NCBI GenBank assembly: GCA_035691085.1
Contig: DASSJS010000264.1
Coordinates: 375-64,374 of the forward strand
Direction: 5' to 3'
DNA: 64,000 bases
Source of the DNA: Longimicrobium sp.
GTDB taxonomy: Bacteria; Gemmatimonadota; Gemmatimonadetes; Longimicrobiales; Longimicrobiaceae
Part shown: positions 10,270 through 52,729 of the stretch, piece after piece
Layout of the letters: each line of letters opens with the position of its first letter
Position numbering within the stretch: the stretch's first letter is position 1
Notes under the pieces: generated by a model
Database searches by the model: none
What the model saw: the letters and a program-made list of their open reading frames with translations, nothing else
What the model was told of the DNA's origin: nothing
Translations under genes and position numbers: made by a program

Positions 10270-10784
10270 GCTCGTGCGGTCTATGCGTGGGATCTGTCCT
10301 GGTGCGCGGCTCTTGCCGGTGGCGAAGTTCGGCTACATGGCCGCTCCAATCACGCCTGCGTTGGAACAGCAGTGGCTTGACATTCGACCGCCCGTTCGAC
10401 GATCTCGTTGATACGGAAGGAGATACGCTCGATAGCGGTCCGCTCTCCTGGCGCCACCGGTGAATTGGAAGGACATCGACCGCGTGTTTCCCGGCCGTTC
10501 CCTCCTTCCGGAATGAATAACGGCAGCCGAGGAGGCTCCCACGGCTGCCGGAGGGTGAATAGCGGGCCAACGATGGGCCGGGTTGGCTGATCCCGTTGCC
10601 GCGCGGCGCGTTGGCCGGGCGGCCAGGAACGAAAATGTCTCGCGCGGCCAGAACCGTCCGTAGTTTGCTTGTGCGGGTGAACAGGTTCCGACATAATTCG
10701 AAAAGTGTTCCCCTCCGCGCCGCCCCGCGCCGAGCACTCCCCTGGGCCTTCCCCGGCCCGCCCCACTCTCCGGGAGGAACCGCA

Positions 10785-12101
10785 ATGCACTTCAACCGGT
10801 CCCAGCGGCGCCTGGTGCCTGTGGGTCTCGCGGCCCTGCTGGCGTGGGCGGTCGCGTGCACCGACCGTTCGAACCCGGTGGCGCCCGTCAAGGTCCAGCC
10901 GAAGGCGCCCGCCGCCGCGCGCATCCCCATCCAGCTCCTCGACTGCACCATCAGCCGCCAGGAGGTAACGCTGCAGTGCGTGGCGTCACGCCCGCACAAC
11001 GACGGGATGAGCGGCATCCTGCTGGGGAACCAGGGGGTGAACGTGCAGCTCACCTCCAGCAACGTGGCGTACAACAGCACTACCGAGGAGTACACGTTCG
11101 ACGTGACGGTGAAGAACCTGATCGAGCAGCCGATCGGCACCACCGACGGGTCGACCGTGGCGACGGGCGGCGTGCGGGTGTTCTTCACGTCGGGGCCCAC
11201 CGTGACCTCGGGGTCGGGGAGCATCAGCGTGGTGGCCGACGGGACGGACTTCTTCACCGCGGCGAACCAGGCGTATTACGAGTACGACGAGCTCCTGGCG
11301 CAGAACGCGACGTCGGCGGCGCACGGGTGGAAGTTCCTGATGCCGCCCTCGGTGGGCACCTTCAGCTTTACCGTGATGGTGTCGGCGCCGGTGCAATACC
11401 CGGCCGGGTACATCACGCTGGACGGGCACCTTCCCGGCTACAACTTCGGGAGCCTTCACCCCGACAGCGCGCACACGCTGGTGTACGAGGTGAAGAACGC
11501 GTTTGGTGCCGTCCAGTCTGGTCTGCTGGTGTCGTATTCGACCAGCGACGCCGCGTGCGCCACGGTGGACTACGCCGGCACGGTGACCGGTGTTCGCCTG
11601 GGCACCTGCACCATCTCGGCGAGCGACGGCTCGCATGATGGGTCGATGGTGTTCTCGGTGACGGGGACCACGCGCACCTGGACCGGCGCCGCGTCGAGCA
11701 ACTGGGACGTGGGGTCGAACTGGACGGGCGGCGTGACGCCGGCCACGGAGGACTCGGTGCTGGTGCCCACGGGCGTGCCGAACTTCCCGGCGCTGGCGTC
11801 GGACGTCACCGTTTCGGACGTGACCGTGGACGACCTGGCCAGCATCGACGTGGGCGCCTTCTCGCTCACCTCCACCGGCAACGTGGCGACCGGGCCCACG
11901 GTAGGGTGGGGAATCTTCTCTTCCAGCACGGGCCAGGTGCTGCTGACCGGGACCGCGCGCACCATGCAGGGCCGTTTCCCCAAGACCCGCGTGAGCGGAA
12001 CCTACACCGTCAACGGCCGCTACTGGGGCCGGGCGCCGCAGACGATCAACGGCGGCCGGGTGACGGTGAGCGGCGTGGAGATGCACATCCACAACAACTG
12101 A
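10785..12101 (+). CDS. Ig-like (BIG2) domain surface lipoprotein, paralog 2 (438 aa)
   Basis: ATG at 10785 preceded by GGGAGGA. MHFNRSQRRLVPVGLAALLAWAVAC is a lipobox. The body is paralogous to 3821 and 12407, e.g. VRVFFTSGPTVTSGSGSISV. Confidence 0.75.
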   Translation: MHFNRSQRRLVPVGLAALLAWAVACTDRSNPVAPVKVQPKAPAAARIPIQLLDCTISRQEVTLQCVASRPHNDGMSGILLGNQGVNVQLTSSNVAYNSTTEEYTFDVTVKNLIEQPIGTTDGSTVATGGVRVFFTSGPTVTSGSGSISVVADGTDFFTAANQAYYEYDELLAQNATSAAHGWKFLMPPSVGTFSFTVMVSAPVQYPAGYITLDGHLPGYNFGSLHPDSAHTLVYEVKNAFGAVQSGLLVSYSTSDAACATVDYAGTVTGVRLGTCTISASDGSHDGSMVFSVTGTTRTWTGAASSNWDVGSNWTGGVTPATEDSVLVPTGVPNFPALASDVTVSDVTVDDLASIDVGAFSLTSTGNVATGPTVGWGIFSSSTGQVLLTGTARTMQGRFPKTRVSGTYTVNGRYWGRAPQTINGGRVTVSGVEMHIHNN

Positions 12102-37901: not shown

Positions 37902-38198
37902 TCAGCACACGGGGGTGATCTGGCGCGTGCCGCACACCTGGTAGGAGGTGTCCGGGCAGTCCACCGCCGTGCGTTCGCACGTCTCGTCCACGGTGAGCTC
38001 GCAGATTCCGTTCACCGATTCGTCGCACGAGTAGATGGTGGCGGGGCCGGTGCCGCAGACCGCGTACGCCGTCTCGCAGTAGCAGCTATCGTCCATCGTG
38101 CAGCCGCGGGCGCGCACCGTCCCGGTCTGCTGCATGGCCGGGGGCGTGGCGAACGACTCCACGGAAAGGCTATCCGGCTCCAGCCTGAGCTTTTTCAT
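37902..38198 (-). CDS. RiPP-precursor-like / Cys-rich secreted peptide P2 (98 aa, 10 Cys)
   Basis: Internal ATG of ORF 37902..38276 with GGAG upstream. The leader MKKLRLEPDSLSVESFATPPAMQQTGTVRA is shared with P1 and P3. The C-terminal 67 aa contain 10 Cys. Confidence 0.6.
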   Translation of the reverse strand: MKKLRLEPDSLSVESFATPPAMQQTGTVRARGCTMDDSCYCETAYAVCGTGPATIYSCDESVNGICELTVDETCERTAVDCPDTSYQVCGTRQITPVC

Positions 38199-38381
38199 CG
38201 GTGTGGCTCCGCGTGTGTGGGGGGAACTCGGCTCGTGTCGCAACCCATCCAGTGTAACGCGGAAACCAACTCTCATCCAGCAGATTGTGTCAGGATCGGG
38301 GAAGCGGCGCGGGGTGCCTCACCCACGCCGGTGCCGGGATTGCCCGCACACGTGAATGCCCCGGCGCTGCCCGGGAGACGG

Positions 38382-39017
38382 CTACGGCTTCTTGCCGCCA
38401 CCGCCCAGCGCCCGCCGGAGGTGCTCGGTGGGGAGGGTGACGTCGAAGTAGAAGGTGCGTTTTTCTCCGGTAGCCGGGTTGGCCGCCTCCATCCTGTCGC
38501 ACGCGCGACTACCGCAGCGATCCAGCGCCTGGTCGCCACGCTCGAAGCCGTTCACCCCCAGGTACGCATACTCCTCCGCCACGGTCACCACCACGAACGG
38601 CGACTGCTGCGTCCCCTTTCCGCTCGCGGCCACCGACTGGACGATGCGCGCAACCACCCCGCGTTCGCGGCCCGCCGCCTCCGTGTCGCCCAGTTGCTCG
38701 GCGGCGTACGCCTTCATCGCGTGTGTGCGGGCGTCGAGCCAGGTCACCGCCAGCACCGCGTCGGCCTCGCGGACCGCGCGTGCCCAGTCGCGCCGCTGGA
38801 GCGCCGCCCGCATGCTGTCGGCGTGCTCGTCGGCGTCGGAGCCGTAGGGCGCATACTCCGGCGACGCGGCCCATGCCTTCCGCAGCGCCGTATAGTCCAC
38901 GGTGGTGTCCCCCGCCTGCGCGCGTGCCAGCAGCGTGCGATACGCCGCCGCGTCCTGCGCGCGCGCCGGGAAGGCGAGCGAACAAAGGAGGAGAAGGGTG
39001 AGTGCCGCGGTTCGCAT
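38382..39017 (-). CDS. Secreted hypothetical protein (possibly DUF4919-like)
   Basis: 211-aa ORF with signal peptide MRTAALTLLLLCSLAFPARAQ and a helical body. The family assignment is from memory only. Confidence 0.55.
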   Translation of the reverse strand: MRTAALTLLLLCSLAFPARAQDAAAYRTLLARAQAGDTTVDYTALRKAWAASPEYAPYGSDADEHADSMRAALQRRDWARAVREADAVLAVTWLDARTHAMKAYAAEQLGDTEAAGRERGVVARIVQSVAASGKGTQQSPFVVVTVAEEYAYLGVNGFERGDQALDRCGSRACDRMEAANPATGEKRTFYFDVTLPTEHLRRALGGGGKKP

Positions 39018-39206
39018 GGTGGGCTCTCCTGATCGGGAAGATGGTGGGAAATCGCCATCTCATCTCATGTACCACAATAGGATGTTTCATCGCCCGCCGT
39101 TCTGACACCCTCCGCCCCAGCTTCCGCCCCTGCAGGCCGCGACGCGCTCATCCAGCTCTGCTCCTTTGCCGCTCGGATCGGACCCACCTGGGGCGGGCCA
39201 GAACAC

Positions 39207-39238
39207 GAATGCCCCGGCGAGTGATTGCCCGGGCATTC
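39207..39238 (-). terminator. Hairpin (gaatgccccggcg-N6-cccgggcattc type)
   Basis: Lies about 40 nt downstream of the 39277..39462 stop on the minus strand. Same stem family as the hairpins at 39614 and 40164. Confidence 0.5.
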
Positions 39239-39276
39239 TTCATTCATCGCTCCCAAGCTTGCGATGCGGCTGCTGC

Positions 39277-39462
39277 TTATCGTTTCGAATTGCCGATGCA
39301 GTATGCGCAGTTATCGTAGCCGGCGTCATTCGCCGCCTTCTGCGTGTCGTACGGCTTGTCGTTGCCCGCGGCGATGATCTCGTCGATCTGGCACTCGTTC
39401 TTGCCGGTCTTTTCGTTGTCCAGATCGTGGACCTCCTTCTTGCTGGGGCTGGTGTTCGCCAA
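39277..39462 (-). CDS. Small Cys-containing protein with Ada-like Zn-binding pattern; in-frame TAA separates it from an upstream RBS+ATG
   Basis: TTG-start ORF from the track. The pattern C-x26-GYDNCAYC resembles the Ada-type metal-binding pattern (...AGYxPCxxC). GGGAGA-ATG at 39504 opens the same frame but hits TAA at 39475..39477. Confidence 0.4.
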   Translation of the reverse strand: MANTSPSKKEVHDLDNEKTGKNECQIDEIIAAGNDKPYDTQKAANDAGYDNCAYCIGNSKR

Positions 39463-39648
39463 ATACTGCTGGCCTTACATGTTGCCCGTGTACCGTCTGG
39501 CCATGGTCGTCTCCCTTCTGATGCGGTGAAGTGCGGCAGATCAGAAGTGAGACGGACGCAGGTTCAAGACTTTCCCGGACCGTGGAACGAGCTGGCGATC
39601 CGAGGTGGCAAAAGCCCCGGCGCCTGCGCGCCGGGGCATCCTCCTGCG

Positions 39649-39795
39649 TCACGCGGCCAGGCGCCGCACCACCTCCCGCGCGCCGCGCCGGTACACCGTG
39701 AGGCACACCAGCTCGCCCGCGGGGTCGCGCACCTCCCACCAGCGCGTGTCCTTCTTCTTCTGGTAGGTGTAGCCGGCGGGTTCCGTGGCAACCGA
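39649..39795 (-). pseudogene. Start-less second copy (X') of the 57-aa gene X, in frame directly behind the TGA of gene Y
   Basis: It translates to SVATEPAGYTYQKKKDTRWWEVRDPAGELVCLTVYRRGAREVVRRLAA, compared with X = ...ATEPAGYTIQKKKDTRWWDMRDHAGELVCLTVYRRGAREVVRRLAA. There is no in-frame start codon. The distance from the Y stop is a multiple of 3. Confidence 0.55.
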
Positions 39796-40101
39796 TCATT
39801 CGCGATCAGGGAACCTGAAGGCTGCCTCGAGCAGCCGGAGAATCTCAGGGTCCGTGATTCCGGGGAACGACGGCGGGCCGAACGACACTCTGCCAACTGC
39901 ACAGATCTCCGCCAGATCATCCACCATTCTCGCACGGAATTCGGGCCGCATTCGTGCGAGCAGCGCCTCGAACGCGGTCAGGTCCACGCCGGATGTAAGC
40001 CGCGCGCGGTCAGCGTCCGTGAGGCGGAAATCCAGGTCGGGTGTGGCGAGGAAAATCGCTTCGGGTGCTGGCCGCTCCATAACGCTGCTCCGGGTTTCCA
40101 T
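39796..40101 (-). CDS. Hypothetical protein Y (about 100 aa)
   Basis: Internal ATG (METRSSVMERPAPEAIFLATPDLDF...) of ORF 39796..40194. Normal composition. No family recognised. Confidence 0.45.
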   Translation of the reverse strand: METRSSVMERPAPEAIFLATPDLDFRLTDADRARLTSGVDLTAFEALLARMRPEFRARMVDDLAEICAVGRVSFGPPSFPGITDPEILRLLEAAFRFPDRE

Positions 40102-40163
40102 GATCGTGCCGCGTTTCGCAAACGCTGCCGAGCCGGAAGGATACGAAGGGAGAGACAAAAACC

Positions 40164-40196
40164 GAATGCCCCGGCGCCTGCGCTGCCGGGGCATTC
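40164..40196 (-). terminator. Hairpin after gene X (gaatgccccggcg-cctgcgct-gccggggcattc)
   Basis: 11-13-bp stem 8 nt after the X stop on the minus strand. Confidence 0.55.
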
Positions 40197-40203
40197 TCGT
40201 GCG

Positions 40204-40377
40204 TCACGCCGCCAAGCGCCGCACCACCTCTCTCGCGCCACGCCGGTACACCGTGAGGCACACCAGCTCGCCCGCGTGGTCGCGCATGTCCCACCACCGC
40301 GTGTCCTTCTTCTTCTGGATGGTGTAGCCGGCGGGTTCCGTGGCGGCGGGAGCGGCGCCCTGCTGTGCATCGGCCAT
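40204..40377 (-). CDS. Small protein X (57 aa; below the ORF-track cut-off)
   Basis: Found by reading the sequence. GGAGGTG lies 5 nt before the ATG. MADAQQGAAPAATEPAGYTIQKKKDTRWWDMRDHAGELVCLTVYRRGAREVVRRLAA, TGA at 40204..40206, 174 nt in total. Confidence 0.55.
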   Translation of the reverse strand: MADAQQGAAPAATEPAGYTIQKKKDTRWWDMRDHAGELVCLTVYRRGAREVVRRLAA

Positions 40378-40500
40378 CGTGCACCTCCTGGCTGGCTTGA
40401 CCCTCGGCGCCCGGCAGGGCTACCTTTGGCGAGCGGGCGGCCTTCGGGTCGGTTCGCGAATGGGCTGGCCGAGGCTTCTTCGCGGGAGATTCGGCCAGCC

Positions 40501-40570
40501 TTGCTTTTTGCCCTGCTGGATAGAATAATATATCCAATCCGCTGTTCTGTCAAGAGCATTCTATCCAATT
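40501..40570 (+). promoter_or_regulatory. AT-rich promoter/operator region upstream of the HTH gene
   Basis: TTGCTT-N17-AATAAT hexamers. The inverted repeat GGATA-N8-TATCC (40518..40535) overlaps the -10. TATCCAAT occurs twice (40531 and 40562). Confidence 0.45.
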
Positions 40571-40576
40571 CGCGCG

Positions 40577-40801
40577 ATGGATTTCAAGGAAGCCACCGAC
40601 ATCCTGACCCGCCGCATCACCGCCGACGAGATCGCTGAGGCCGCCGGCGTGTCGATCAGCTCGATCGCGCGGGCGCGGTTGGACCCAGCCAGTTCCGCCT
40701 ACCGCTCACCGCCTGAGGACTGGCGATCCGTGCTGGGGCGATTGGCGCGAGAACGTCTTCAAGAGCTGGCAGCATTTGCTGAAGAGATGGAGGCTGCGTA
40801 A
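40577..40801 (+). CDS. Small HTH DNA-binding protein (74 aa), candidate controller of the downstream operon
   Basis: 74-aa ORF. ITADEIAEAAGVSISSIARARL is a helix-turn-helix pattern. It lies 50 nt upstream of and co-directional with the four-gene operon. Confidence 0.65.
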   Translation: MDFKEATDILTRRITADEIAEAAGVSISSIARARLDPASSAYRSPPEDWRSVLGRLARERLQELAAFAEEMEAA

Positions 40802-40851
40802 TTTGAAGGTCCCGCAAACGTTTTCACACTGACAATCGCCCAAGGTCACGA

Positions 40852-41763
40852 ATGCTGTATGATCGCGATATTGTGAGAGTGCGTGAGAAGCTGGAGTTCT
40901 TTAAGAAGGCAGCAATCTGGCCATTGGAATTTAGTTTTGACCCGGAAGGTTGGCTTACAAATTTCCGGGATGACGAACTGGACGTTGCTGTCGCTCTTCT
41001 CGATGGATTTTCATACTTCGCACCGGAGCTTACCAAAAAGATTCTCAGCACTGCTTTCCATCGACTGAGCCACTACGTGGCAGACCCTTCGAGTGCGCCT
41101 GCTGAACGGATAAATCTTTGGGACGGGTTTCGGGAAAGCGTGATTATCACGTATCCGACGGACGAACGACCAGGAGCTACAGACAGCGGGCGCACCTACC
41201 TCCGCAAGGCGAGAACAATTCTTGGGCTAGAGCAAGAGCAGTATATGGATCCAGTTGATGCGCTTTCCGCGCGTATTTTAGATCCGTCTAGACCACTAAT
41301 CTTTCTTGATGATTTCGCCGGAAGTGGGAATCAATTTTGTGAGACTTGGCATAGACCCTACATGATCGCTGGACGGCGTTGGTCTTTCAACTCGGCAGGT
41401 GGTGCAGGACTTTTGGCGTATATTCCGATACTCAGTTCCCACATGGCAGTTCGGAGCATTGATCGATGTGCATCGAACGTCCTGTTTCTACCAGGGCATG
41501 TCGTAGGGGAGGAATATTCCGCCTTCCACCCTGAGTCAGTGCTTTGGCCATCGCCGGAAGTGCAACAGAAAGCCCGAGATGTTATCTACGAGGCGAGCGC
41601 GCGCGCCGGGATTCCACTCGGCGATGGATCCGTGCCGGACGATTGGTGCGGATACCGAGAGTTAGGACTAGCGTTGGCGATTGACGACACCATTCCCGAT
41701 GCCTGCCTAACGATTCTGTACTGGAACGCGAATGGCTGGCAACCGTTGTTCAGGAGGCCGTAA
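40852..41763 (+). CDS. Operon gene A: PRTase-like protein (303 aa)
   Basis: Low-GC ORF. PLIFLDDFAGSGNQF resembles the PRPP-binding loop of type I phosphoribosyltransferases (hhhhDDhxxTGxT). The TAA stop abuts the gene B ATG. Confidence 0.75.
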   Translation: MLYDRDIVRVREKLEFFKKAAIWPLEFSFDPEGWLTNFRDDELDVAVALLDGFSYFAPELTKKILSTAFHRLSHYVADPSSAPAERINLWDGFRESVIITYPTDERPGATDSGRTYLRKARTILGLEQEQYMDPVDALSARILDPSRPLIFLDDFAGSGNQFCETWHRPYMIAGRRWSFNSAGGAGLLAYIPILSSHMAVRSIDRCASNVLFLPGHVVGEEYSAFHPESVLWPSPEVQQKARDVIYEASARAGIPLGDGSVPDDWCGYRELGLALAIDDTIPDACLTILYWNANGWQPLFRRP

Positions 41764-43644
41764 ATGCAAGAGGATGTATTCACCGCTTTACGGGCGGTAT
41801 TCGGTCGGTATAAGGCCGAGTGGCTACGTGGGGATGTTTTTCGTCTGTTCCAGAAACCCGGGTACTTTCCGGAATTGGAAGAGCCGAGGCCGACTGCACT
41901 CATCGGAGGACGGGGGACAGGTAAAACCAGTGTATTAAAGAGCCTTTCCTATAGAGGGCATTTCGAGTTAAGTGGCAAGTCTGCCGCAGCCGCTGTTAAC
42001 GCCCCGTACGTCGGACTGTATTGGTGCATCGATTCTAACCGGGTTACAGCTTTTGCTGGGCCTGAGCTCGAGCCCAAGCAGTGGATAAGGCTGTTTGCAC
42101 ACTATGTTAACTTGGAAATCGTAGCGATGTTTTGTGAGTATGTCCTTTGGTTTGAAAACACGACTGGAACAACTGTCACGGTGCCACAATCCAGACTAGC
42201 GAAAGTTGGGACTGCTCTCCACATCACGGGTGCGGCGACGATAAACGAGCTCGCGTCTAAGGTGAGTGAAGCGCTGGTTACTTTGGAAGCTAGCATCAAC
42301 TCCGTTGCGGATCGCGCAAATGCCCCGCTGAGCATGCAAAGCGTGCCGATCGAGTACTTAGCGGAGGCCCTGATTTCAACTGATGCCTTCAGTGGAAAGG
42401 TTTTTTACATAGTTGTTGACGAATTTGAGAACTTGGACGAAACGCAACAATCTCTGTTCAACACGCTCATCAAGCATGGCCGTGACAAGTTTGCGTTCAA
42501 GATTGGAATGAAAGACTCGGGATGGCGGACCAAAGCCACCCTTAATGGTGAAATCTTGACGCATCCGGCAGACTACGACCTGATCGATCTATCGGAACGT
42601 TTTGGTAATGGTCAGTACCCGAGTTTTGCTCGTGAAGTATGTGAGGCTCGGTTGGCTCACGCCTTTGTAAGGGCGGGTCTTGTAAACATGCCTCCGGAGA
42701 TTCCCTCCTATTTTCAAGACCTTGCGGTGGATGAAGAGGCTCGACTGCTGGGGTTAGGTCGGCGGATCGCCCCAATTCGCGCGAGTGTTATGAAGGACCC
42801 TAACGCCTCCGAGCTGTTGAACGATCTCTCGGATCTCGACCTGTACTACCTCCACCGGCGGGCAGAGAGTGAGAGTGTATCTTTGACCGAGATCTTGGCT
42901 GAATACAGTTTGAATCCCAAAGGCTATCTATCTAGCTACAGAGAAAACTACCGACAGTCCTTGCTATTTACGATAAGCGAGCACTCCGGGAAAGGCCTGC
43001 AAAAGTACTATTCAGGATGGAATACCCTCACAAAGGTATCCGGCGGGAACATTCGTTATTTAGTGGAAATCGTGGAGCGGGCATTTGAACTCCACCGCAC
43101 TACAAGTAACGACATTCGCAAGGCTGTATCAGCTCGCGATCAAACAGAGGCTTGTATTGCTGTGGGACGCAAGTACGTGCAAGAAGTACAGGCTTTAGAC
43201 CCACAGGGACACAGGCTCACATTCCTGCTACTTGGCCTCGGTCGTCTGCTGAATCTTCTAGCGCGCCATTCTCTTGGGAAGCAGCCAGATACAACGTCAT
43301 TTGTACTTGCGCGTCCCACTTCTCAGGAGATAGCCCAAGAACTTGATGATCTGTTGCGTATCGCGGTGATGCATCAGGTACTGCGGAAGTGGCCAGCGAC
43401 TAAATTGACGAGTCACACCGAAGCGAAGGAATCCGAGTATTCTGTGCATCCAATCTTTGCTGCGTTCTTTGTATTCCCTTATCAGAAGAAACGTCGGATC
43501 AGGATTTCGGGTGAGGATCTACTACTGCTCTCTGTGGACCTGAAGGCTGGGTTGGCGGCGGTACTGAATGCTGTCGGACAGCCCGATGATCCTACTGAGG
43601 CTCTTCCACGGCAACTGAGTCTTTTCGAGGCAGCATATGAGTGA
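41764..43644 (+). CDS. Operon gene B: P-loop NTPase, ORC/Cdc6-like AAA+/STAND-like (626 aa)
   Basis: Walker A LIGGRGTGKTSV, Walker B VFYIVVDEFENL, and a long helical C-terminal region. Translationally coupled on both sides. Confidence 0.8.
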   Translation: MQEDVFTALRAVFGRYKAEWLRGDVFRLFQKPGYFPELEEPRPTALIGGRGTGKTSVLKSLSYRGHFELSGKSAAAAVNAPYVGLYWCIDSNRVTAFAGPELEPKQWIRLFAHYVNLEIVAMFCEYVLWFENTTGTTVTVPQSRLAKVGTALHITGAATINELASKVSEALVTLEASINSVADRANAPLSMQSVPIEYLAEALISTDAFSGKVFYIVVDEFENLDETQQSLFNTLIKHGRDKFAFKIGMKDSGWRTKATLNGEILTHPADYDLIDLSERFGNGQYPSFAREVCEARLAHAFVRAGLVNMPPEIPSYFQDLAVDEEARLLGLGRRIAPIRASVMKDPNASELLNDLSDLDLYYLHRRAESESVSLTEILAEYSLNPKGYLSSYRENYRQSLLFTISEHSGKGLQKYYSGWNTLTKVSGGNIRYLVEIVERAFELHRTTSNDIRKAVSARDQTEACIAVGRKYVQEVQALDPQGHRLTFLLLGLGRLLNLLARHSLGKQPDTTSFVLARPTSQEIAQELDDLLRIAVMHQVLRKWPATKLTSHTEAKESEYSVHPIFAAFFVFPYQKKRRIRISGEDLLLLSVDLKAGLAAVLNAVGQPDDPTEALPRQLSLFEAAYE

Positions 43645-44620
43645 ACGGATTCTCTTGCCGGTTTGCACTGGCCGCTTCACCTCGCGGGCCTCCTTCAACG
43701 TGCGTCCTGGCGCGGTATACATCTACGGAGAGTCGCTTGAGAATCGCAGCCACCTTCCGCAGAGTTGGATGGAAACGCAGGATTGCCACTTTTTTCGAGT
43801 GGAAGAACAGGAATATGAGCGTTTTGCGTTCACAGTTGCTGGGCGGGAATATCGCCTGCGCAGTCGCATCGATGTAGAGGCTTTCATAGATCACATTCTG
43901 GCAGTTTCCCCAGTCGTCTATGTAGACATCACAGGACTTAGTCACCATGTCTGGGCGCCCTTGATTTCGGAAATAGTGCTAAGGGTGGCCCGATTCCCAA
44001 ATGCGGGCATTCAATTAGCCGCAGTGTATGTAGAACCCGTGCATTATACCAAGTCGAAAGTCCCGCGTCCGGGCGACATCTTCGCACTGAGTGATAAATT
44101 GCATGGTATACGCCCGTTACCCGGGCTTGTCCGTCTTCGGCGACATGAGAGTGACAAGGCGATGATTGTAGCGCTTCTCGGATTCGAAGGGTGGCGCTTC
44201 GATGCAGTGCTTGCGAAGCTTGAACCGGACGCTGGGACTGTTGTACCGGTGATCGGTGTTCCTGGATTTCGCGCGGAGTACCCGTTCTACACCCTCGAAG
44301 GCAACATAATTCCGCTTGAGCGAGATGGTAACTGGACTCGGCGGAAGTTCGCGACGGCGAATGATCCTTTCGAAGTTTACCACATTCTCGAAATGCTGCA
44401 GACTCGACACCCTGAGACCCTTCTCAGGGTTGCATTGGTCGGGACGAAGCCCCATGCTCTCGGTGCCGTTATCTTCCATGCGGTGCACCCGGGGATGAGT
44501 GAACTCATCTACGATAACCCAGTACGGAGTGCCGGACGGACCGACTCTGACCGAACGCTCTTGGAGTACGACGTCTCCTCGTTCCTTGGGATGATGAACG
44601 ACCCAAGCTTCGCCGCATAA
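43637..44620 (+). CDS. Operon gene C: unknown protein with alternating beta/alpha (Rossmann-like) pattern (327 aa)
   Basis: The start overlaps the gene B stop by 8 nt. Strand-like segments VVYVDITGLSHH, AMIVALLGFEG, VVPVIGVPGF and LRVALVGTKPHALG. No catalytic motif recognised. Confidence 0.7.
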   Translation: MSERILLPVCTGRFTSRASFNVRPGAVYIYGESLENRSHLPQSWMETQDCHFFRVEEQEYERFAFTVAGREYRLRSRIDVEAFIDHILAVSPVVYVDITGLSHHVWAPLISEIVLRVARFPNAGIQLAAVYVEPVHYTKSKVPRPGDIFALSDKLHGIRPLPGLVRLRRHESDKAMIVALLGFEGWRFDAVLAKLEPDAGTVVPVIGVPGFRAEYPFYTLEGNIIPLERDGNWTRRKFATANDPFEVYHILEMLQTRHPETLLRVALVGTKPHALGAVIFHAVHPGMSELIYDNPVRSAGRTDSDRTLLEYDVSSFLGMMNDPSFAA

Positions 44621-44630
44621 CGAGTTCTAG

Positions 44631-45773
44631 ATGGCCACTCTTCCGAGTAGAGTGATGATCGACGCCCACTACACGCCGCCCTCGATCGCACGAGAACTTA
44701 TCAGCCACGTTGGTCGGCTGCTTCCGGGCTCTATTGCCGACTTCGCGGCTGGGGGCGGCGAGTTGCTCCTACAAGCTGCGAATAGGTGGCCGAGACGCGA
44801 ATTCGCTGCTTGCGATATCTCGCGCCAAGCTGTGGCCAGACTTTCCAGGGAACGACCCGAGTGGAAAATCGGCACGTGTGATTTCTATTCTTCGCGTTCG
44901 CGGGCAGCTTCGCGGGTTCTTCGTTCTGTGCGGGGCGATGTGGCGCTGTGTCTCGCAAACCCTCCGTTTTCCTATCGTGGTGGTGAGCAGTGGCGAGTTG
45001 TTCCGGCAACAGGGACGTCTCTTTTCTGTGGTCCAGCGATGGCATTCCTCCTGAATGCCGTTGAATATCTCCGACCGGGTGGACAATTGGTGGCCATCGT
45101 CCCTGCCAATGCCCTTAGGAGTGCGAAGGACGAGGCGGCAGTCAATTTTCTGAACGAGTCGGGGACGCTAAAACTACTCGACAGTTATCCCAGAGGAGCG
45201 TTTCCAAACTGCACTTCTCAAACTGTAAGTATTAGTTACCACCGCGACAGGGTATCGCGCGAAGTTGAGGTTGTTGGGAAAGAGGTTCGCGCCGTAAGGG
45301 TGGAGGTTGAACTTACTCGGGGAAGCACCCCGATGCACTCCGTTCTGCCTCTCGGCGCTGGGCACATACCTGTCGTGCACACGTCAGATCTCCGGAACAA
45401 CACTGTGCAGCGCCCTAATCATGGGGTCACACGGGCTAATAACGTTGTTCGTGGTCCCGCAGTGTTAGTTCCTCGAGTCGGGAAGCCACAAAGCGACAAA
45501 GTTGCAATTTACACAGCCGACGATCCGGTCGTACTGTCCGACTGCGTATTTGCGATTAGGTGTGCATCTGCAGGCGACGCTCTATACGTTCTAAACATCC
45601 TCTTGGCGAATTGGGTAATCCTTTGTCGAGTATATCACGGAACGTGCGCACCATATATCACGATTAAGGACTTGGTGGGAGCATTACATGGCATGGGAAT
45701 ACACGTGTGTGCCCGTTCGTCAGAGGTGCATAGCAACAACCTGCAACAAATCGCAGCGACGGTGGTCATCTAG
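44631..45773 (+). CDS. Operon gene D: gamma-class N6-adenine DNA methyltransferase (380 aa)
   Basis: Motif I IADFAAGGGELL (AdoMet binding) precedes motif IV LANPPFSY (NPPF/Y). The C-terminal about 180 aa are plausibly the target-recognition domain. Confidence 0.85.
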   Translation: MATLPSRVMIDAHYTPPSIARELISHVGRLLPGSIADFAAGGGELLLQAANRWPRREFAACDISRQAVARLSRERPEWKIGTCDFYSSRSRAASRVLRSVRGDVALCLANPPFSYRGGEQWRVVPATGTSLFCGPAMAFLLNAVEYLRPGGQLVAIVPANALRSAKDEAAVNFLNESGTLKLLDSYPRGAFPNCTSQTVSISYHRDRVSREVEVVGKEVRAVRVEVELTRGSTPMHSVLPLGAGHIPVVHTSDLRNNTVQRPNHGVTRANNVVRGPAVLVPRVGKPQSDKVAIYTADDPVVLSDCVFAIRCASAGDALYVLNILLANWVILCRVYHGTCAPYITIKDLVGALHGMGIHVCARSSEVHSNNLQQIAATVVI

Positions 45774-45852
45774 GCATGTCGGGAATCCTGACGCGGTTCA
45801 ACGCGGTGTCGCGCAGCCCCATTCCGACGGAGAAACCCGCGCCAACTGTTCG

Positions 45853-46206
45853 CTACACGCCGCCGCCCACACGCTCGTAGCGGTAGCGCACCGTCCGCTG
45901 GGGCGTGAAGACGAGGCGCTCGAGCCGCACCTCGTTTCCCGAGAAGACGCCCTTCTGCTGCTCGGAATGGCCAGTCTCGGCGTCGAACAGGTTGATCGTG
46001 TCGCCGCAGGGGCCGCGCAGCTCGAAGCGCCCGCCGCCGTAGTGCATCCACGACGTGACGGGCGGCGGATCATCGTCGCACCAAGCGCGCGCCTCGCTCT
46101 GCTGGGCGTAGGTGCCATCCGCGCGCAGCGTGACCACATTGCGGATGAGGAACGACGTGCACGTCCGGCCGGCGAGCCACGCCTCGCCGACGACACGTTC
46201 ACACAT
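45853..46206 (-). CDS. Hypothetical protein (117 aa)
   Basis: Only the C-terminal part (MCERVVGEAWLAGRTC...RYRYERVGGGV) of ORF 45853..46902 has protein-like composition. GGAAAG lies upstream of the ATG at 46206. An alternative ATG is at 46263. Confidence 0.45.
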   Translation of the reverse strand: MCERVVGEAWLAGRTCTSFLIRNVVTLRADGTYAQQSEARAWCDDDPPPVTSWMHYGGGRFELRGPCGDTINLFDAETGHSEQQKGVFSGNEVRLERLVFTPQRTVRYRYERVGGGV

Positions 46207-46356
46207 CCCGCTTTCCGTTCTGTTCGTCACAATGTATCGTGGCTGGTCCGCCGTACACTGCATCCCGGGGGCACATCGGGCACTCTCTTCTGCCGGCCTC
46301 TGGCATCGGCCGCGAACGCCGCGGACCTGCGCATTCACCATTCCAGTGAGGACGCC

Positions 46357-46533
46357 ATGGAAAAGCTGAGGCTGAACGTGGAGGAACTGACGGTGCAGTC
46401 GTTCGCCACGGACGATGCGGACGCGCAGATGGGCACCGTGCAGGGGCAGGAGGTGGCGGCGCCGAGCGCCTTCTACACGCGTTGCTGTCAGACGAACGAA
46501 GTCCAGTCGTGCCCGGCCCGCTGCACCCCGTGA
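46357..46533 (+). CDS. RiPP-precursor-like peptide P3 (58 aa, 4 Cys)
   Basis: Internal ATG of ORF 45688..46533 with GAGGA upstream. MEKLRLNVEELTVQSFATDDADAQMGTVQG is followed by QEVAAPSAFYTRCCQTNEVQSCPARCTP. Confidence 0.6.
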   Translation: MEKLRLNVEELTVQSFATDDADAQMGTVQGQEVAAPSAFYTRCCQTNEVQSCPARCTP

Positions 46534-46642
46534 GCGGTCGAACCACGACCCGACCAACGGGCCTCCGGAGTGAATGATCGCCGCAGTGACGGATGGAGAG
46601 GTTTGGAGGCACCGGGGCGGGGAAGAACGCAGGCGGAAATTC

Positions 46643-46670
46643 GGCCCCGGCGATCCAGATCGCCGGGGCC
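46643..46670. terminator. Hairpin ggccccggcg-N8-cgccggggcc (left copy of a duplicated terminator)
   Basis: 10-bp stem between P3 (+) and the AKR fragment (-). Its counterpart lies at 49567..49593. Confidence 0.55.
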
Positions 46671-46708
46671 GAGTCACGTCAGCACGTGAGCAGGGAAGCC
46701 GACCGGCC

Positions 46709-46906
46709 TCAATCCGCCGCGGCCGTCTCCACCACCTGGGGCGCGCCGGGGAAGCCGTCGCCGGCGTAGCGGTAGTGCGGGCCCAGGTCGCTGCCGTCGC
46801 GGACCATGGTGCCCTTGTAGCGCATGTGCTCCTCGTGCACGCCGAAGTTGATGCGCTGCAACTCGTCGATGCGGCGCAGGCGGTCCGGAGTAGCCCAAGC
46901 ACGAGG
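46709..46906 (-). pseudogene. 3'-terminal fragment (about 65 codons) of an aldo/keto reductase gene, duplicate of the 3' end of 49634..50734
   Basis: About 180 bp are nearly identical to 49631..49808. It encodes ...RRIDELQRINFGVHEEHMRYKGTMVRDGSDLGPHYRYAGDGFPGAPQVVETAAAD and is bounded upstream by an in-frame TAG. Confidence 0.8.
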
Positions 46907-47081
46907 CTAGACGAGACAACTTCGCTTAAAGAACTTGCCTTTTGTGCCGATCCATCTTTATCGTACTGGCAATTCCATAGGAGTCTATACCCTGCAGGAA
47001 TGCGTTGCGGAGGTCACGACTTGCGTTCGGGCGCACGATGGCGGGTGCGCGAAGATTTACATCATTCCGGGAGATATTGCG

Positions 47082-47519
47082 ATGTGGCGAGTCATCTCGG
47101 CAGGGACCGTCTTCGCGCTCACCGCGATCGCGGCAGCGTGCGAAACGACGGGTGGGGCGCTCGGCACGATGGAACCACCCAGGAACTATACCGAGCTCAG
47201 GATGACCACCCGTGACGAGAGCTACCACCTCTCGCAATCTCAGCACGACCTGGTGCGCCGCGGGTTCGATGTGAACGCGCTCGAGCGCCTTTTGTCGCAC
47301 GTGCCGGTGTCACGGCGCGAGGAGATTCTCTCATCCTTCCTGTTATCGACTAACAACGAGATGCACGAGCTCTGGTACATCGGTGATCCGGGACTGCAGT
47401 CAATTCTGGAGGAGGTGTGGGCTCCGACATGGGAGCATCGCACGGCGGCGGAGATCGAGGCGGATCGCACGGAGCGCCCAGGTAAGCGTCTCGCCCTCGC
47501 CCGGCTGCGTTCGCGTTAG
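47082..47519 (+). CDS. Hypothetical lipoprotein (145 aa)
   Basis: Internal ATG (MWRVISAGTVFALTAIAAAC) of ORF 46935..47519, with signal peptide plus lipobox. Confidence 0.55.
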   Translation: MWRVISAGTVFALTAIAAACETTGGALGTMEPPRNYTELRMTTRDESYHLSQSQHDLVRRGFDVNALERLLSHVPVSRREEILSSFLLSTNNEMHELWYIGDPGLQSILEEVWAPTWEHRTAAEIEADRTERPGKRLALARLRSR

Positions 47520-47566
47520 AACGCCTCCCCCAAGTCTCCCTCGATCACGCATCCGAGGAGCTCACC

Positions 47567-48271
47567 ATGCGCATACGTCCGATATCTGCACTTCTTCTAG
47601 CCCTCGCCTGCGCTTCTATTTGGCCCTCGTATTTGTTCGCGCAGTATAGCCAACTGGAGCCAATGGCCTGTCCGTACAGGCTCAACCAGTTCCGGGTGGC
47701 TGTCGAGGCGCCGTCCGGTGAGAAGTACTTCTTCGTGGCGGATTGGATCCACGCATCCAACATCGGCAGCGGCGTCTCCAGCGCCTTCTACGATGTTGAT
47801 ACAACGCTCGGGCCATACTCGCCGCTCGGGCTGACGTCAGATGACGGAAAGGCCAGGTGGAAGTACCCAGGGATCTACGTTTCCTGCCACAAGCGTGTCT
47901 ACTATCGGGCGGATCGCTCGATAGAAAACGTGGTCCCGATCTACCGCGTGGAGTACACGGAAGGCGATATCCAGGAACTCGCGAGCACCTGCGGCCCGAA
48001 AACCTCCTACGCGGAGTATGACCCGTACGCCCCCACCAACGACGAAGACTGCTCGCACGACGGTTCCGGCAGCGGCGGTGGAAGCGGTATCCAGTTTGAA
48101 CCCGGCGACAGCACCGGCGGTGAGACAGTCGACTGGCAGACAGGAATCGGAAACGGCGGGGTCAGCGCCTGCGGGACGGCTGCTACCGTCGAGTACATCT
48201 GCATCGACCTATGGAACGACTTCGAGCAGAAGTGGGACCTGTACTCCTGCGGCTACGCAACAACCTGCTGA
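47567..48271 (+). CDS. Secreted hypothetical protein (234 aa), Cys-containing with Gly/Ser linker
   Basis: Signal peptide MRIRPISALLLALACASIWPSYLFAQ. Lower GC than the flanks. No family recognised. Confidence 0.6.
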   Translation: MRIRPISALLLALACASIWPSYLFAQYSQLEPMACPYRLNQFRVAVEAPSGEKYFFVADWIHASNIGSGVSSAFYDVDTTLGPYSPLGLTSDDGKARWKYPGIYVSCHKRVYYRADRSIENVVPIYRVEYTEGDIQELASTCGPKTSYAEYDPYAPTNDEDCSHDGSGSGGGSGIQFEPGDSTGGETVDWQTGIGNGGVSACGTAATVEYICIDLWNDFEQKWDLYSCGYATTC

Positions 48272-51337: not shown

Positions 51338-52729
51338 TCAGCAGTGCGAGCTCATGGCGAAGCCTTCCTGCGCGTCCACCAGCGGGGCGCGGTAGTCGCC
51401 GGTGAAGCAGGCGGTGCAGTAGGTCTCGCCGTTGTCGCGCACGCAGTCCAGCATCCCCTCGGGCGACAGGTAGCCGAGCGAATCCACGCCCAGGTACTCG
51501 CGGATCTCGTCCACGCTCTTTCCCGAGGCGATCAGCTCGCCCTTGCTGGGCATGTCGATGCCGTAGAAGCAGGGCCAGCGCACCGGGGGGCTCGCCAGGC
51601 GCAGGTGCACCTCGGCCGCGCCCGCGTCGCGCAGGATTGCCACCAGCGCGCGCGACGTGGTCCCGCGCACCAGCGAATCGTCCACCACCACCACGCGCTT
51701 CCCCTCCAGCACCTCGCGAACGGGGCTGAACTTGAGGCGCACCTTGAAGTCACGCCCGGCCTGCGTGGGGGTGATGAAGGTGCGGCCCACGTAGTGGTTG
51801 CGGATCAGCCCCAGCTCGAACGGCACGCCGCTCTGCTCGGCGTAGCCCACCGCCGCCGAGTTGGCGCTGTCGGGCACGCTGATCACGATGTCGGCGCTTG
51901 CGGGGCGCTCCTGCGCCAGGCGCCGGCCGAATGCGCGGCGGGCGCGGTCCACCGTGTATCCCCACAGCCGCGTGTCGGGGCGGGCGAAGTACACCAGCTC
52001 GAACACACACGGCTGCGGCTCGGCCACGAAGCGCGGGAGCCGCACCACGCTCTCGATCTCGCCGCCGCGGATGCGGATCAGCTCGCCCGGCTCCACGTCG
52101 CGCACGTAGCGCGCGTGCACGATGTCGAGCGCGCACGTCTCGCTGGCCACCACCAGCCCGCCGGTGGGGAGCGCACCGATCACCAGCGGGCGGTAGCCGT
52201 ACGGGTCGCGCGCGGCATACAGCGTGTCATCCACCGTGGCCAGGATGCAGTACGCGCCCTCCAGCTGGCTCAGCGCGTCCACGATCTGCGCCTCCGGCGT
52301 GTTGTCGCGCGAGCGGGCGATCAGGTGCACGATCACCTCGCTGTCGATGGTGCTCTGGAAGAACGCACCCTCTTCGAGCAGGCGGTCGCGGATGGCGTGG
52401 AAGTTGGTGAGGTTGCCGTTGTGGACCACCGCGAGGTGGCCGAAGCGGTACGTTTCGCGGATCGGCTGGGCGTTCTTGAGCCCCGCGCCCCCGGCGGTGG
52501 AGTAGCGGATGTGCCCCACCGCCGTCTCGCCGGGTAGCTCGGCCAGCTTCTGGTCGGTGAACACGTCGGAGACCAGCCCCGCCTCGCGGACACGGTGCGT
52601 CTCGCCCGTCGCACCCTCGTAGGTGACGATGCCGGCGGCCTCCTGGCCGCGGTGCTGGAGCGAGTAGAGGCCCAGGTAGGTGAGCCGGGCGGCTTCGGGA
52701 TTGCCGGAAACCGCTACGATTCCACACAC
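51338..52729 (-). CDS. purF: Amidophosphoribosyltransferase
   Basis: 463 aa. N-terminal nucleophile MCGIVAV, PRPP loop VVVVDDSLVRGTTS, C-terminal Fe-S Cys cluster (CTACFTGDY). Confidence 0.93.
   Translation of the reverse strand: MCGIVAVSGNPEAARLTYLGLYSLQHRGQEAAGIVTYEGATGETHRVREAGLVSDVFTDQKLAELPGETAVGHIRYSTAGGAGLKNAQPIRETYRFGHLAVVHNGNLTNFHAIRDRLLEEGAFFQSTIDSEVIVHLIARSRDNTPEAQIVDALSQLEGAYCILATVDDTLYAARDPYGYRPLVIGALPTGGLVVASETCALDIVHARYVRDVEPGELIRIRGGEIESVVRLPRFVAEPQPCVFELVYFARPDTRLWGYTVDRARRAFGRRLAQERPASADIVISVPDSANSAAVGYAEQSGVPFELGLIRNHYVGRTFITPTQAGRDFKVRLKFSPVREVLEGKRVVVVDDSLVRGTTSRALVAILRDAGAAEVHLRLASPPVRWPCFYGIDMPSKGELIASGKSVDEIREYLGVDSLGYLSPEGMLDCVRDNGETYCTACFTGDYRAPLVDAQEGFAMSSHC

Follow-up and report, generated by a model that had tools for sequence, protein, structure and literature searches.

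We analyzed a 64-kilobase (kb) window of DNA from Longimicrobium sp. (64,000 nucleotides [nt], positions 375 to 64,374 of contig DASSJS010000264.1), in which four plus-strand open reading frames (ORFs), here called genes A, B, C, and D, occupy a stretch of low G+C content. The window as a whole has a G+C content of ~72%, which falls to 51-57% at ~40.5-45.8 kb. The individual genes A to D lie at 51-55% (52.5% for gene A), compared with 72% and 70.5% in the two flanks. Gene A, on which this analysis centers, belongs to the PRTase-CE family and carries a divergent type I phosphoribosyltransferase (PRTase) fold. The four genes of the cassette are as follows.

40852-41763, plus strand: gene A, 303 amino acids (aa), PRTase-CE family, predicted effector (Pfam PF24390, PADLOC, AlphaFold2/Foldseek).
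41764-43644, plus strand: gene B, 626 aa, ORC-CDC6-like P-loop ATPase, predicted sensor or scaffold (Pfam PF24389).
43637-44620, plus strand: gene C, 327 aa, CARF6-like protein with two Rossmann-type domains, predicted ligand sensor or adaptor (PADLOC CARF6, Foldseek).
44631-45773, plus strand: gene D, 380 aa, gamma-class amino-methyltransferase with a C-terminal target-recognition-like domain, predicted self-marking DNA N6-methyladenine (m6A) methylase (motifs, ortholog profile).

The genes are closely packed. The stop codon of A abuts the start codon of B (TAAATG), with the sequence AGGAGG 8 nt upstream of the ATG of B; genes B and C overlap by 8 nt (ATGAGTGA), and 10 nt separate the end of C from the start of D. 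These tight junctions, together with the low G+C content, indicate a translationally coupled and horizontally acquired operon. Gene A starts with ATG and encodes 303 aa, and its N-terminus, MLYDR(D/E), is common to its homologs. In the public annotation, the products of A and C are 294 and 283 aa long, respectively. The homologs keep longer N-termini (303 and 327 aa), and the deposited start codons of A and C are therefore probably wrong. A protein 100% identical to that of gene A is recorded in a metagenome-assembled genome of Longimicrobium sp. as a 'hypothetical protein'.

Gene A matched the Pfam model PRTase-CE (PF24390) with an E value of 2.9e-39 and a score of 135.9 bits (cutoff, 27 bits), the alignment covering positions 2-253 of the 253 in the profile and residues 32-302 of the protein. 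It also matched the two PADLOC PRTase_III-A models, which describe the effector of type III-A retrons (E values of 3.3e-13 and 3.7e-13, residues 33-302). A precomputed PRTase-CE domain was present in all of the homologs found (52/52). No NCBIfam family matched gene A, salvage enzymes included. When a profile of 35 homologs of A, reaching down to 30% identity (alignment A1), was compared with the sequences in the PDB, no chain was matched at an E value of ≤10, and a predicted structure was therefore required for the assignment of the fold.

The AlphaFold2 model of A, built on 35 homologs, had a pLDDT of 91 and a pTM of 0.87. Among the top 50 matches to this model found by Foldseek in the PDB, 47 were type I PRTases or PRTase-related proteins, with probabilities of up to 1.00 and target-normalized TM-scores of 0.34-0.48. 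The matches comprised uracil, orotate, hypoxanthine-guanine, adenine, and xanthine PRTases, uncharacterized structures of the PRTase family such as 2e55, 1v9s, and 1vch, and the PurR repressor at rank 50. The best match was the uracil PRTase 1o5o (E value of 1.9e-4, probability of 1.00). A helical N-terminal extension of ~95 residues is also carried by gene A. As modeled, the fold of gene A is PRTase-like and divergent, the match being moderate and not close. Membership of A in the type I PRTase superfamily is seen in the fold and, only in a variant form, in the motif described below, but not in the canonical sequence model. A PRTase-like fold had been proposed for this gene in an original prediction made from the letters of the window. 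The full-length match to PRTase-CE, the PADLOC retron III-A models, and the structural matches all bear this proposal out.

Two conserved elements were located within gene A.

41290-41337, plus strand: PRPP-loop-like motif RPLIFLDDFAGSGNQF, residues 147-162, formed by a strand with DD at its end, then a G-S-G loop and the beginning of a helix.
41182-41214, plus strand: second conserved patch, D111-S112-G113...R118...R121, at the N-terminus of helix 112-124 (from conservation).

The original prediction had singled out a hydrophobic strand followed by DD and an SG loop in a 303-aa protein, and RPLIFLDDFAGSGNQF is indeed present in the ORF at 40852-41763 on the plus strand. It was said to lie about two-thirds along the protein, which is incorrect; the motif is in the middle, at 49-53% of the length. 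The motif of PurF that had been set beside it for comparison, VVVVDDSLVRGTTS, is real and was located on the minus strand, close to nt 51694, in a 463-aa ORF at 51338-52729. In the model of A, strand 149-156 (with D153-D154), the G-S-G loop, and helix 160-167 reproduce the arrangement of the 5-phosphoribosyl-1-pyrophosphate (PRPP) loop of known PRTases. Measured against the usual PRPP-binding loop (a hydrophobic strand and two acidic residues, followed by x-x-[ST]-G-x-[ST]), gene A is a variant: it retains the strand, DD, and S-G, but has an invariant Gln where the final Thr would be and an additional Gly ahead of the Ser. The motif is no chance match: the loose pattern [LIVMFYCA]4-DD-h-x0-3-[ST]G matched only gene A across the six reading frames of the window (~128,000 codons).

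The residues of the loop are highly conserved. D153, D154, G159, Q161, S112, R118, R121, G267, and P282 are invariant in the 35 homologs of alignment A1. We additionally searched 1.84 billion representatives with a hidden Markov model, without requiring the motif, and took the query and its 146 best 50%-identity representatives as the conservation set. The PRTase-CE family amounted to 3064 representative clusters at an E value of ≤1e-3 and to 439 at ≤1e-30. The DD pair, on whose conservation the original prediction depended, was kept in 146/147 sequences, as was [ST] at position 158, while G157, G159, and Q161 were each kept in 145/147. In the second patch, S112 was conserved in 146/147, G113 and R118 each in 141/147, and R121 in 137/147. 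This patch comes after a loop of lower confidence in the model (residues 101-111) and, by analogy with the pyrophosphate (PPi) loop of type I PRTases, the segment D111-R121 is a candidate pyrophosphate- or phosphate-binding loop. The complete family signature, made up of h-h-D-D-F-x-G-[ST]-G-x-Q, the S-G...R...R patch, and the C-terminal G-x14-P-D, is present in gene A and shows little or no variation in alignment A1 and in the 147 sequences. The Thr-to-Ser and Thr-to-Gln changes had been thought to mark a possibly inactive binding module. This concern is not borne out, since almost all members of the family have G-[ST]-G-x-Q and GSGNQ also occurs in the effector of Retron-Eco11, and the variant loop is the constrained signature of the family.

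The sole exception was a 678-aa protein from a metagenome contig, P0287 (L092:1444-3480), in which a calcineurin-like phosphoesterase is fused N-terminally to a PRTase-CE domain. In this domain, S112, DD, G159, Q161, and the P-D motif are lost together. It was also considered as a fusion of D and A, which was rejected because its N-terminus is the calcineurin-like phosphoesterase. Judged by its sequence, P0287 looks like an effector replacement, in which the scaffold has been kept while one nucleotide- or phosphate-directed enzyme has taken the place of another. Only this one example was found, and its contig ends before the partner genes.

The three partners of A were examined in the same manner. 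Gene B matched the ORC-CDC6-like model of Pfam (PF24389) with an E value of 2.6e-114 over 571/571 positions, and its Walker A (G48-G-R-G-T-G-K-T55) and Walker B (D219-E220) motifs were at least 93% conserved among 76 orthologs. Its matches in the PDB were at the level of the P-loop only (e.g., midasin), with no close solved structure. Gene C matched the PADLOC CARF6 model (E value of 3.8e-90) and no Pfam model. Its AlphaFold2 model (pLDDT of 87, pTM of 0.90) consists of two Rossmann-type halves, which locally matched the cyclic tetra-adenylate (cA4)-binding CARF domains of Csm6 and Can2 with probabilities of 0.91-0.99; the fold matches of the whole protein were weak (TM-score of ~0.25), and there was no match among PDB sequences. 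The invariant motifs of gene C are G-T-K-P-H (residues 269-273) and D-I-T-G. The ligand sites of CARF domains have a G-T-K motif after a strand, as in gene C.

Gene D has the invariant motifs D11..T15-P16 (Y/F-T-P), D37-F-x-x-G41-x-G43, and N110-P-P-F113, and its C-terminal domain is conserved. As a single sequence it matched nothing in the PDB. Matches appeared only with the ortholog profile and included the M subunit of the type I enzyme EcoR124II (E value of 1.9e-10), the StySJI M subunit, METTL5, and M.BseCI. Pfam MTS and N6_Mtase were also matched, as were PADLOC mad2 (2.2e-13) and MTase_II (2e-10). By its sequence motifs, gene D is classed as a gamma-class amino-methyltransferase of the N6-adenine type. 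With Pfam, PADLOC, and NCBIfam, no nuclease, helicase, reverse transcriptase (RT), or nucleotide cyclase was recognized in the cassette. The N6-adenine-type methyltransferase and the P-loop ATPase in one operon agree with the restriction-modification (R-M)-like context claimed in the original prediction, and the comparative-genomics proposals to which it alluded most likely concern the family that Pfam names PRTase-CE.

We then surveyed the cassette in 185,579 species genomes, one per species, and confirmed 166 relatives of A, from which we retained 80 loci. These loci had been fetched by a pattern containing the DD motif, and they were therefore used for gene-neighborhood counts only and not for motif conservation. 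Genes A, B, C, and D occurred together in 71/80 loci (tblastn with the proteins of the window); of the nine incomplete loci, three were cut by contig ends, and several were interrupted by insertions. The pairing of A with B (PF24389) was found in every locus with enough sequence, and three independent homologs of C, chosen without reference to A, were all in the same cassette with PRTase-CE. The hosts belong to at least 10 phyla and include Acidobacteriota, Planctomycetota, Chloroflexota, Pseudomonadota (Alpha-, Beta-, and Gammaproteobacteria), Actinomycetota, and Bacteroidota, as well as Verrucomicrobiota (including Akkermansia), Spirochaetota, Nitrospirota, Myxococcota, Elusimicrobiota, and Latescibacterota. 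The cassette is also present on mobilizable plasmids of Moraxella and Burkholderia. Its neighbors elsewhere, namely, DarT/Macro, HsdR, PIN-PhdYeFM, AbiEi, Type ISP, SoFic, NACHT, a resolvase, and many transposases, are typical genes of defense islands and mobile DNA.

The order of the genes is permuted in some loci while the set is kept. Gene D lies directly upstream of A in ~10 of them (L009, L017, L021, L026, L034, L041, L057, L060, L061, and L087). In the last of these, an Armatimonadetes contig, the cassette and FRG and SoFic-like genes lie between two fragments (1-606 and 10472-10960) that each match the Type ISP restriction enzyme C-terminal domain, which may reflect insertion into, or a hotspot beside, another defense gene. 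The only records labeled as phage that contain the cassette look chromosomal. In one of these (L091, CAKLQF020000018.1, 'Acinetobacter phage MD-2021a'), the neighbors are a nonribosomal peptide synthetase, threonine dehydratase, tRNA-Val, cstA, and elongation factor P genes, as on a bacterial chromosome, and the phage label is doubtful.

A dUTPase gene abuts the cassette in 28/80 genome loci, at a distance of no more than ~250 nt from the start of A or from the end of D or C. Examples are given here.

L089, 6309-6974: dUTPase gene.
L046, 7335-7955: dUTPase gene.
L002, 1386-1811, minus strand: dUTPase gene.
L003, 14840-15235, minus strand: dUTPase gene.

The dimeric all-alpha form, dUTPase_2 (PF08761), was found in 9 genome loci and additionally on a Moraxella plasmid and in an Acinetobacter record. 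The trimeric form (PF00692), which is unrelated to PF08761, was found in 19 loci; the trimeric enzyme of L002 has all five dUTPase motifs, as judged by eye. Two unrelated folds with the same activity thus recur at the same genomic position, which argues that the hydrolysis of dUTP as such is important for the system. This suggests that the chemistry of the system involves dUTP or uracil nucleotides. The dUTPase may feed A with nucleoside monophosphate (NMP) and PPi, in a cascade resembling the PRTase and pyrophosphatase of ShosT or the HAD and Calcineurin-CE enzymes of PUA-Cal-HAD, or it may shield the host DNA from uracil when nucleotide pools are disturbed. This recurrent link may already have been described in the literature.

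From what was observed and computed (the family and fold of A, the conservation of its motif, the operon structure, the foreign base composition, and the recurrence of the four-gene set across phyla), we infer a defense role for the cassette, the identity of its sensor, the substrate of A, and the role of methylation. With a probability of roughly 60%, gene A is the effector of a BREX-like, methylation-keyed antiphage operon and drains nucleotides or PRPP, with no cutting of DNA. In such a system, D would mark the host's own DNA, and B, with the CARF-like protein C, would detect DNA that lacks the mark or invades the cell, or else an alarm ligand derived from nucleotides. Gene C would bind a nucleotide-type ligand or bridge B to A. 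Detection would release the PRTase-CE enzyme A, whose putative ribose-5-phosphate site (DD and G-S-G-x-Q) would consume PRPP or split nucleotides at the glycosidic bond. Replication would then be starved of precursors, and the infection would be stopped by growth arrest or abortive infection.

A more elaborate form of this mechanism, which we regard as improbable, is a nucleotide-destroying cascade of two enzymes, a dUTPase-type pyrophosphatase and a PRTase-CE enzyme working in reverse, gated by a CARF-like sensor of a nucleotide alarm. The dUTPase-type enzyme, either adjacent to the cassette or the host's own, would convert (d)NTP to NMP and PPi, and PRTase-CE would run backwards to convert NMP and PPi to the free base and (deoxy)ribose-phosphate-diphosphate. 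The alarm sensed by C could be a methylated mononucleotide released from DNA that bears the system's own mark. In PUA-Cal-HAD, which has a HAD and Calcineurin-CE pair, m6-dAMP acts as such a signal (bioRxiv 10.64898/2026.01.15.699771).

Other explanations assign a different task to A. It could transfer a phosphoribosyl group or a base onto DNA or onto a precursor, so that A and D would together make a protective hypermodification, while B and C would restrict unmodified DNA. The original prediction had named the modification of a base or of DNA among its options. Two modification enzymes in one operon recall multienzyme DNA modification systems. PRTases form N-glycosidic bonds, A has an intact ribose-phosphate site by sequence, and A and D are always coinherited, with D directly upstream of A in the ~10 loci listed above. 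However, no nuclease or restriction module was recognized in B or C that could read such a mark, and the two proteins to which A is compared below, the Retron-Eco11 effector and ShosT, act on pools of small molecules and not on DNA. The dUTPase association likewise suggests an action on the nucleotide pool, the Pfam name of the family is that of a conflict effector, and the catalytic loss and phosphoesterase fusion of P0287 fit a toxic output better. We consider hypermodification an unlikely role. It is similarly doubtful that A makes a PRPP-derived messenger that is read by C, or is a noncatalytic nucleotide sensor, with B or a host factor as the effector. A source of ligand is needed for a CARF-like protein whose cassette has no recognizable cyclase, and PRTase-fold proteins can be regulators, as the presence of PurR among the fold matches illustrates; the sensing of a nucleotide signal had also been considered in the original prediction. 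However, the near-invariant DD and loop argue for catalysis over mere binding, B has no recognizable toxic domain, and the dead PRTase site of P0287, with its added phosphoester-degrading enzyme, is the behavior of an output module. That A is an ordinary PRTase of nucleotide salvage or biosynthesis, placed beside a methylase by chance, is hardly credible. Such an enzyme would share the PRTase fold, and uracil PRTases are the best structural matches. However, A matches neither Pribosyltran nor any NCBIfam salvage enzyme, its G+C content is 20 points below that of the host, and it has the ~95-residue helical N-terminal extension and family-specific motifs. It is moreover locked into a set of four genes that has spread among phyla and onto plasmids.

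Several results weigh against the reading of A as a nucleotide- or PRPP-draining effector. The window copy has no dUTPase gene anywhere in the 64 kb. The canonical Pfam Pribosyltran model did not match gene A at an E value of ≤1, an hhalign comparison of the A1 profile with PurF of the window was not significant (E value of 0.16) and aligned an unrelated stretch, and the fold matches of A had target-normalized TM-scores of 0.27-0.48 with high root-mean-square deviations. No solved structure related in sequence to A, B, or C was found, and D matched generic methyltransferases only. The absence of a nuclease also counts here; a scan of A, B, and C for nucleases and helicases was negative, with limited sensitivity for the C-terminal half of B. 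No cyclic-nucleotide synthase of the Cas10/CD-NTase type that could supply a ligand to the CARF-like protein was matched within the cassette. In the related loci, only A to D and dUTPase were sought by tblastn, and synthase domains would be visible only in the precomputed Pfam annotations of some of these loci. DNA is the likely, predicted substrate of D, with RNA or a nucleotide as alternatives. Swapping of the effector beside homologs of C was considered and rejected, as PRTase-CE was present in 3/3 cases; the effector was never swapped there, and the argument for an effector slot therefore rests on the single fusion protein P0287. No experiments on the cassette, and no paper describing it, were found in a literature search that did not take in the likeliest descriptions (NAR 2023 and NAR 2020).

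If the effector reading is correct, the cassette is a compact, portable module that joins epigenetic self-marking to a metabolic attack on PRPP or nucleotides, and it would bring a system of BREX-like logic under the 'nucleotide depletion' paradigm. With four small genes and clear catalytic residues, it would be a tractable model for how ORC/Cdc6-type ATPases link an effector to the methylation state of DNA. The candidates for the substrate are narrowed down by the association with dUTPases. This link and the fusion of a dead PRTase to a phosphoesterase are the observations most worth following.

The surroundings of the cassette in the window contain the following further features.

40577-40801, plus strand: small ORF upstream of A, 74 aa, with a weak helix-turn-helix (HTH) signal (subthreshold matches).
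40553-40525, minus strand: leftward near-consensus sigma-70-type promoter (TTGACA, 17 nt, TATTAT; 11/12 matches) at the AT-rich border of the island.
39630-39789 and 40185-40344, read on the minus strand: 160-nt direct repeat left of the island, with copies 92% identical and 555 nt apart.

The HTH matches of the 74-aa ORF were all below threshold (TetR_N, HTH_24, and mad1, the last with an E value of 0.0011). Its G+C content of 64% is intermediate between those of the island and the host, and it is preceded by an AT-rich stretch at 40500-40575. The ORF had no counterpart in 83 related loci, and its candidacy as a controller of the cassette was rejected, as it is not conserved in any of them. 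Either a regulator acquired locally or no gene at all may be present here, and its belonging to the system is doubtful. The leftward promoter faces the repeated small ORFs, and a comparable plus-strand site for the cassette was not found. In a scan for sigma-70 promoters and terminators, the counts were no better than those in shuffled sequences, and there was no plus-strand promoter upstream of A. Each copy of the 160-nt repeat encodes the same peptide of ~45-57 aa (...EPAGYT(I/Y)QKKKDTRWW...VYRRGAREVVRRLAA), with a GC-rich hairpin (AATGCCCCGGCG...) after it. In the left copy, which comes after a 132-aa ORF, no start codon is obvious. Neither the repeat nor the peptide matched Pfam or Rfam.

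The genes flanking the cassette are ordinary or unassigned (a di-heme peroxidase, an FAD oxidoreductase, DUF4919, and an aldo-keto reductase). No integrase was present among the flanking ORFs scanned, there were no tRNA genes in the 64-kb window, and no Rfam model was matched in 38000-48000 at an E value of ≤1. No convincing direct or inverted repeats bound the stretch at 40.5-45.8 kb.

The nearest tested relative of A is the PRTase-like effector of Retron-Eco11 from E. coli, which experiments have established as an antiphage effector (PMC12746101). The PRPP motif of this effector is VVILTDTIGSGNQ, and it has a retron-specific motif, G-x14-P-N-N-x-P; an effector mutated in the PRTase catalytic site served as the inactive control (PMC12746101). 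Retron-Eco11 is triggered by phage helicases, and its activation lowers PRPP by ~50% and leads to abortive infection (PMC12746101). Gene A is homologous to this effector over residues 33-302, and the GSGNQ loop is common to both. Gene A has LIFLDDFAGSGNQ and G267-x14-P282-D283-A, where Eco11 has G-x14-P-N. In contrast to the acidic pair DD of A, Eco11 has T-D, and the 303-aa protein A does not have the C-terminal winged-helix lobe of the 51-kDa Eco11 effector. Gene A is accompanied by an ATPase, a CARF-like protein, and a methylase. No RT domain was found in the five cassette ORFs and no Rfam match in 38000-48000, and A is therefore a relative of the retron effector and not part of a retron.

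ShosT provides a second comparison. PRPP is bound in its crystal structure, and replacement of DD by AA abolishes the filamentation seen with the wild-type protein (PMC11961720). ShosT disturbs nucleotide metabolism, and its fused pyrophosphatase is thought to pull the reaction forward (PMC11961720). Gene A shares the PRTase fold and the DD pair with ShosT, and in both cases a second phosphate-handling enzyme is associated, the pyrophosphatase in ShosT and the dUTPase beside many cassettes. However, ShosT has a canonical domain resembling adenine PRTase and belongs to a two-gene toxin-antitoxin system with no methylase, ATPase, or CARF-like partner. No sequence match between ShosT and gene A was detectable in the PDB searches.

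The likeness to BREX (type 1) is one of logic. In BREX, BrxC is an ATPase of the ORC/Cdc6 clade that works with an m6A methylase, and PglZ is the core phosphate-chemistry enzyme (PMC12839542). The cassette similarly combines an ORC/Cdc6-type ATPase with a predicted N6-adenine-type methylase and has no classical restriction nuclease. It differs in having no BrxA, BrxB, BrxL, or PglZ, in matching none of the PADLOC BREX models, and in that its enzyme is a PRTase; gene B, roughly half as large as BrxC, matches another Pfam family.

With the canonical type I PRTases (uracil, orotate, hypoxanthine-guanine, and PurF), gene A shares the alpha/beta core and the succession of a strand, two acidic residues, a small-residue phosphate loop, and a helix. 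However, it is only 9-14% identical to them, and its loop is G-[ST]-G-x-Q, in contrast to x-T-G-x-T. The helical N-terminal extension and the C-terminal G-x14-P-D-A...W-x-P-L region also set A apart. Unlike the CARF sensors of Csm6 and Can2, gene C has no fused nuclease, and the cassette has no Cas10 or other source of oligoadenylate. Gene D has the methyltransferase motifs of classical R-M systems (types I-III), but there is no cognate endonuclease, HsdR, or Res, and a classical R-M identity was rejected because no nuclease was recognized. Membership in MADS was likewise rejected. The MAD2 score was 10.2 bits against a cutoff of 720, and the mad1 and mad8 matches were marginal and limited to the HTH and P-loop.

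The closest comparison is with the PF24390/PF24389 set itself. The letters 'CE' in these Pfam names mean 'conflict effector', a term for which Nicastro, Burroughs, Iyer, and Aravind are credited (NAR, 2023). That A and B have consecutive accessions in Pfam suggests that the published description of conflict effectors covers exactly this cassette. Pfam already lists both the family and its ATPase partner, and gene A is therefore a further member of a cataloged family. The window copy has the same genes A, B, C, and D as the other members of the set and differs from them in the lack of an adjacent dUTPase gene and in the additional 74-aa HTH-like ORF. What is new here is an unannotated copy of the cassette in Gemmatimonadota (class Longimicrobiia).

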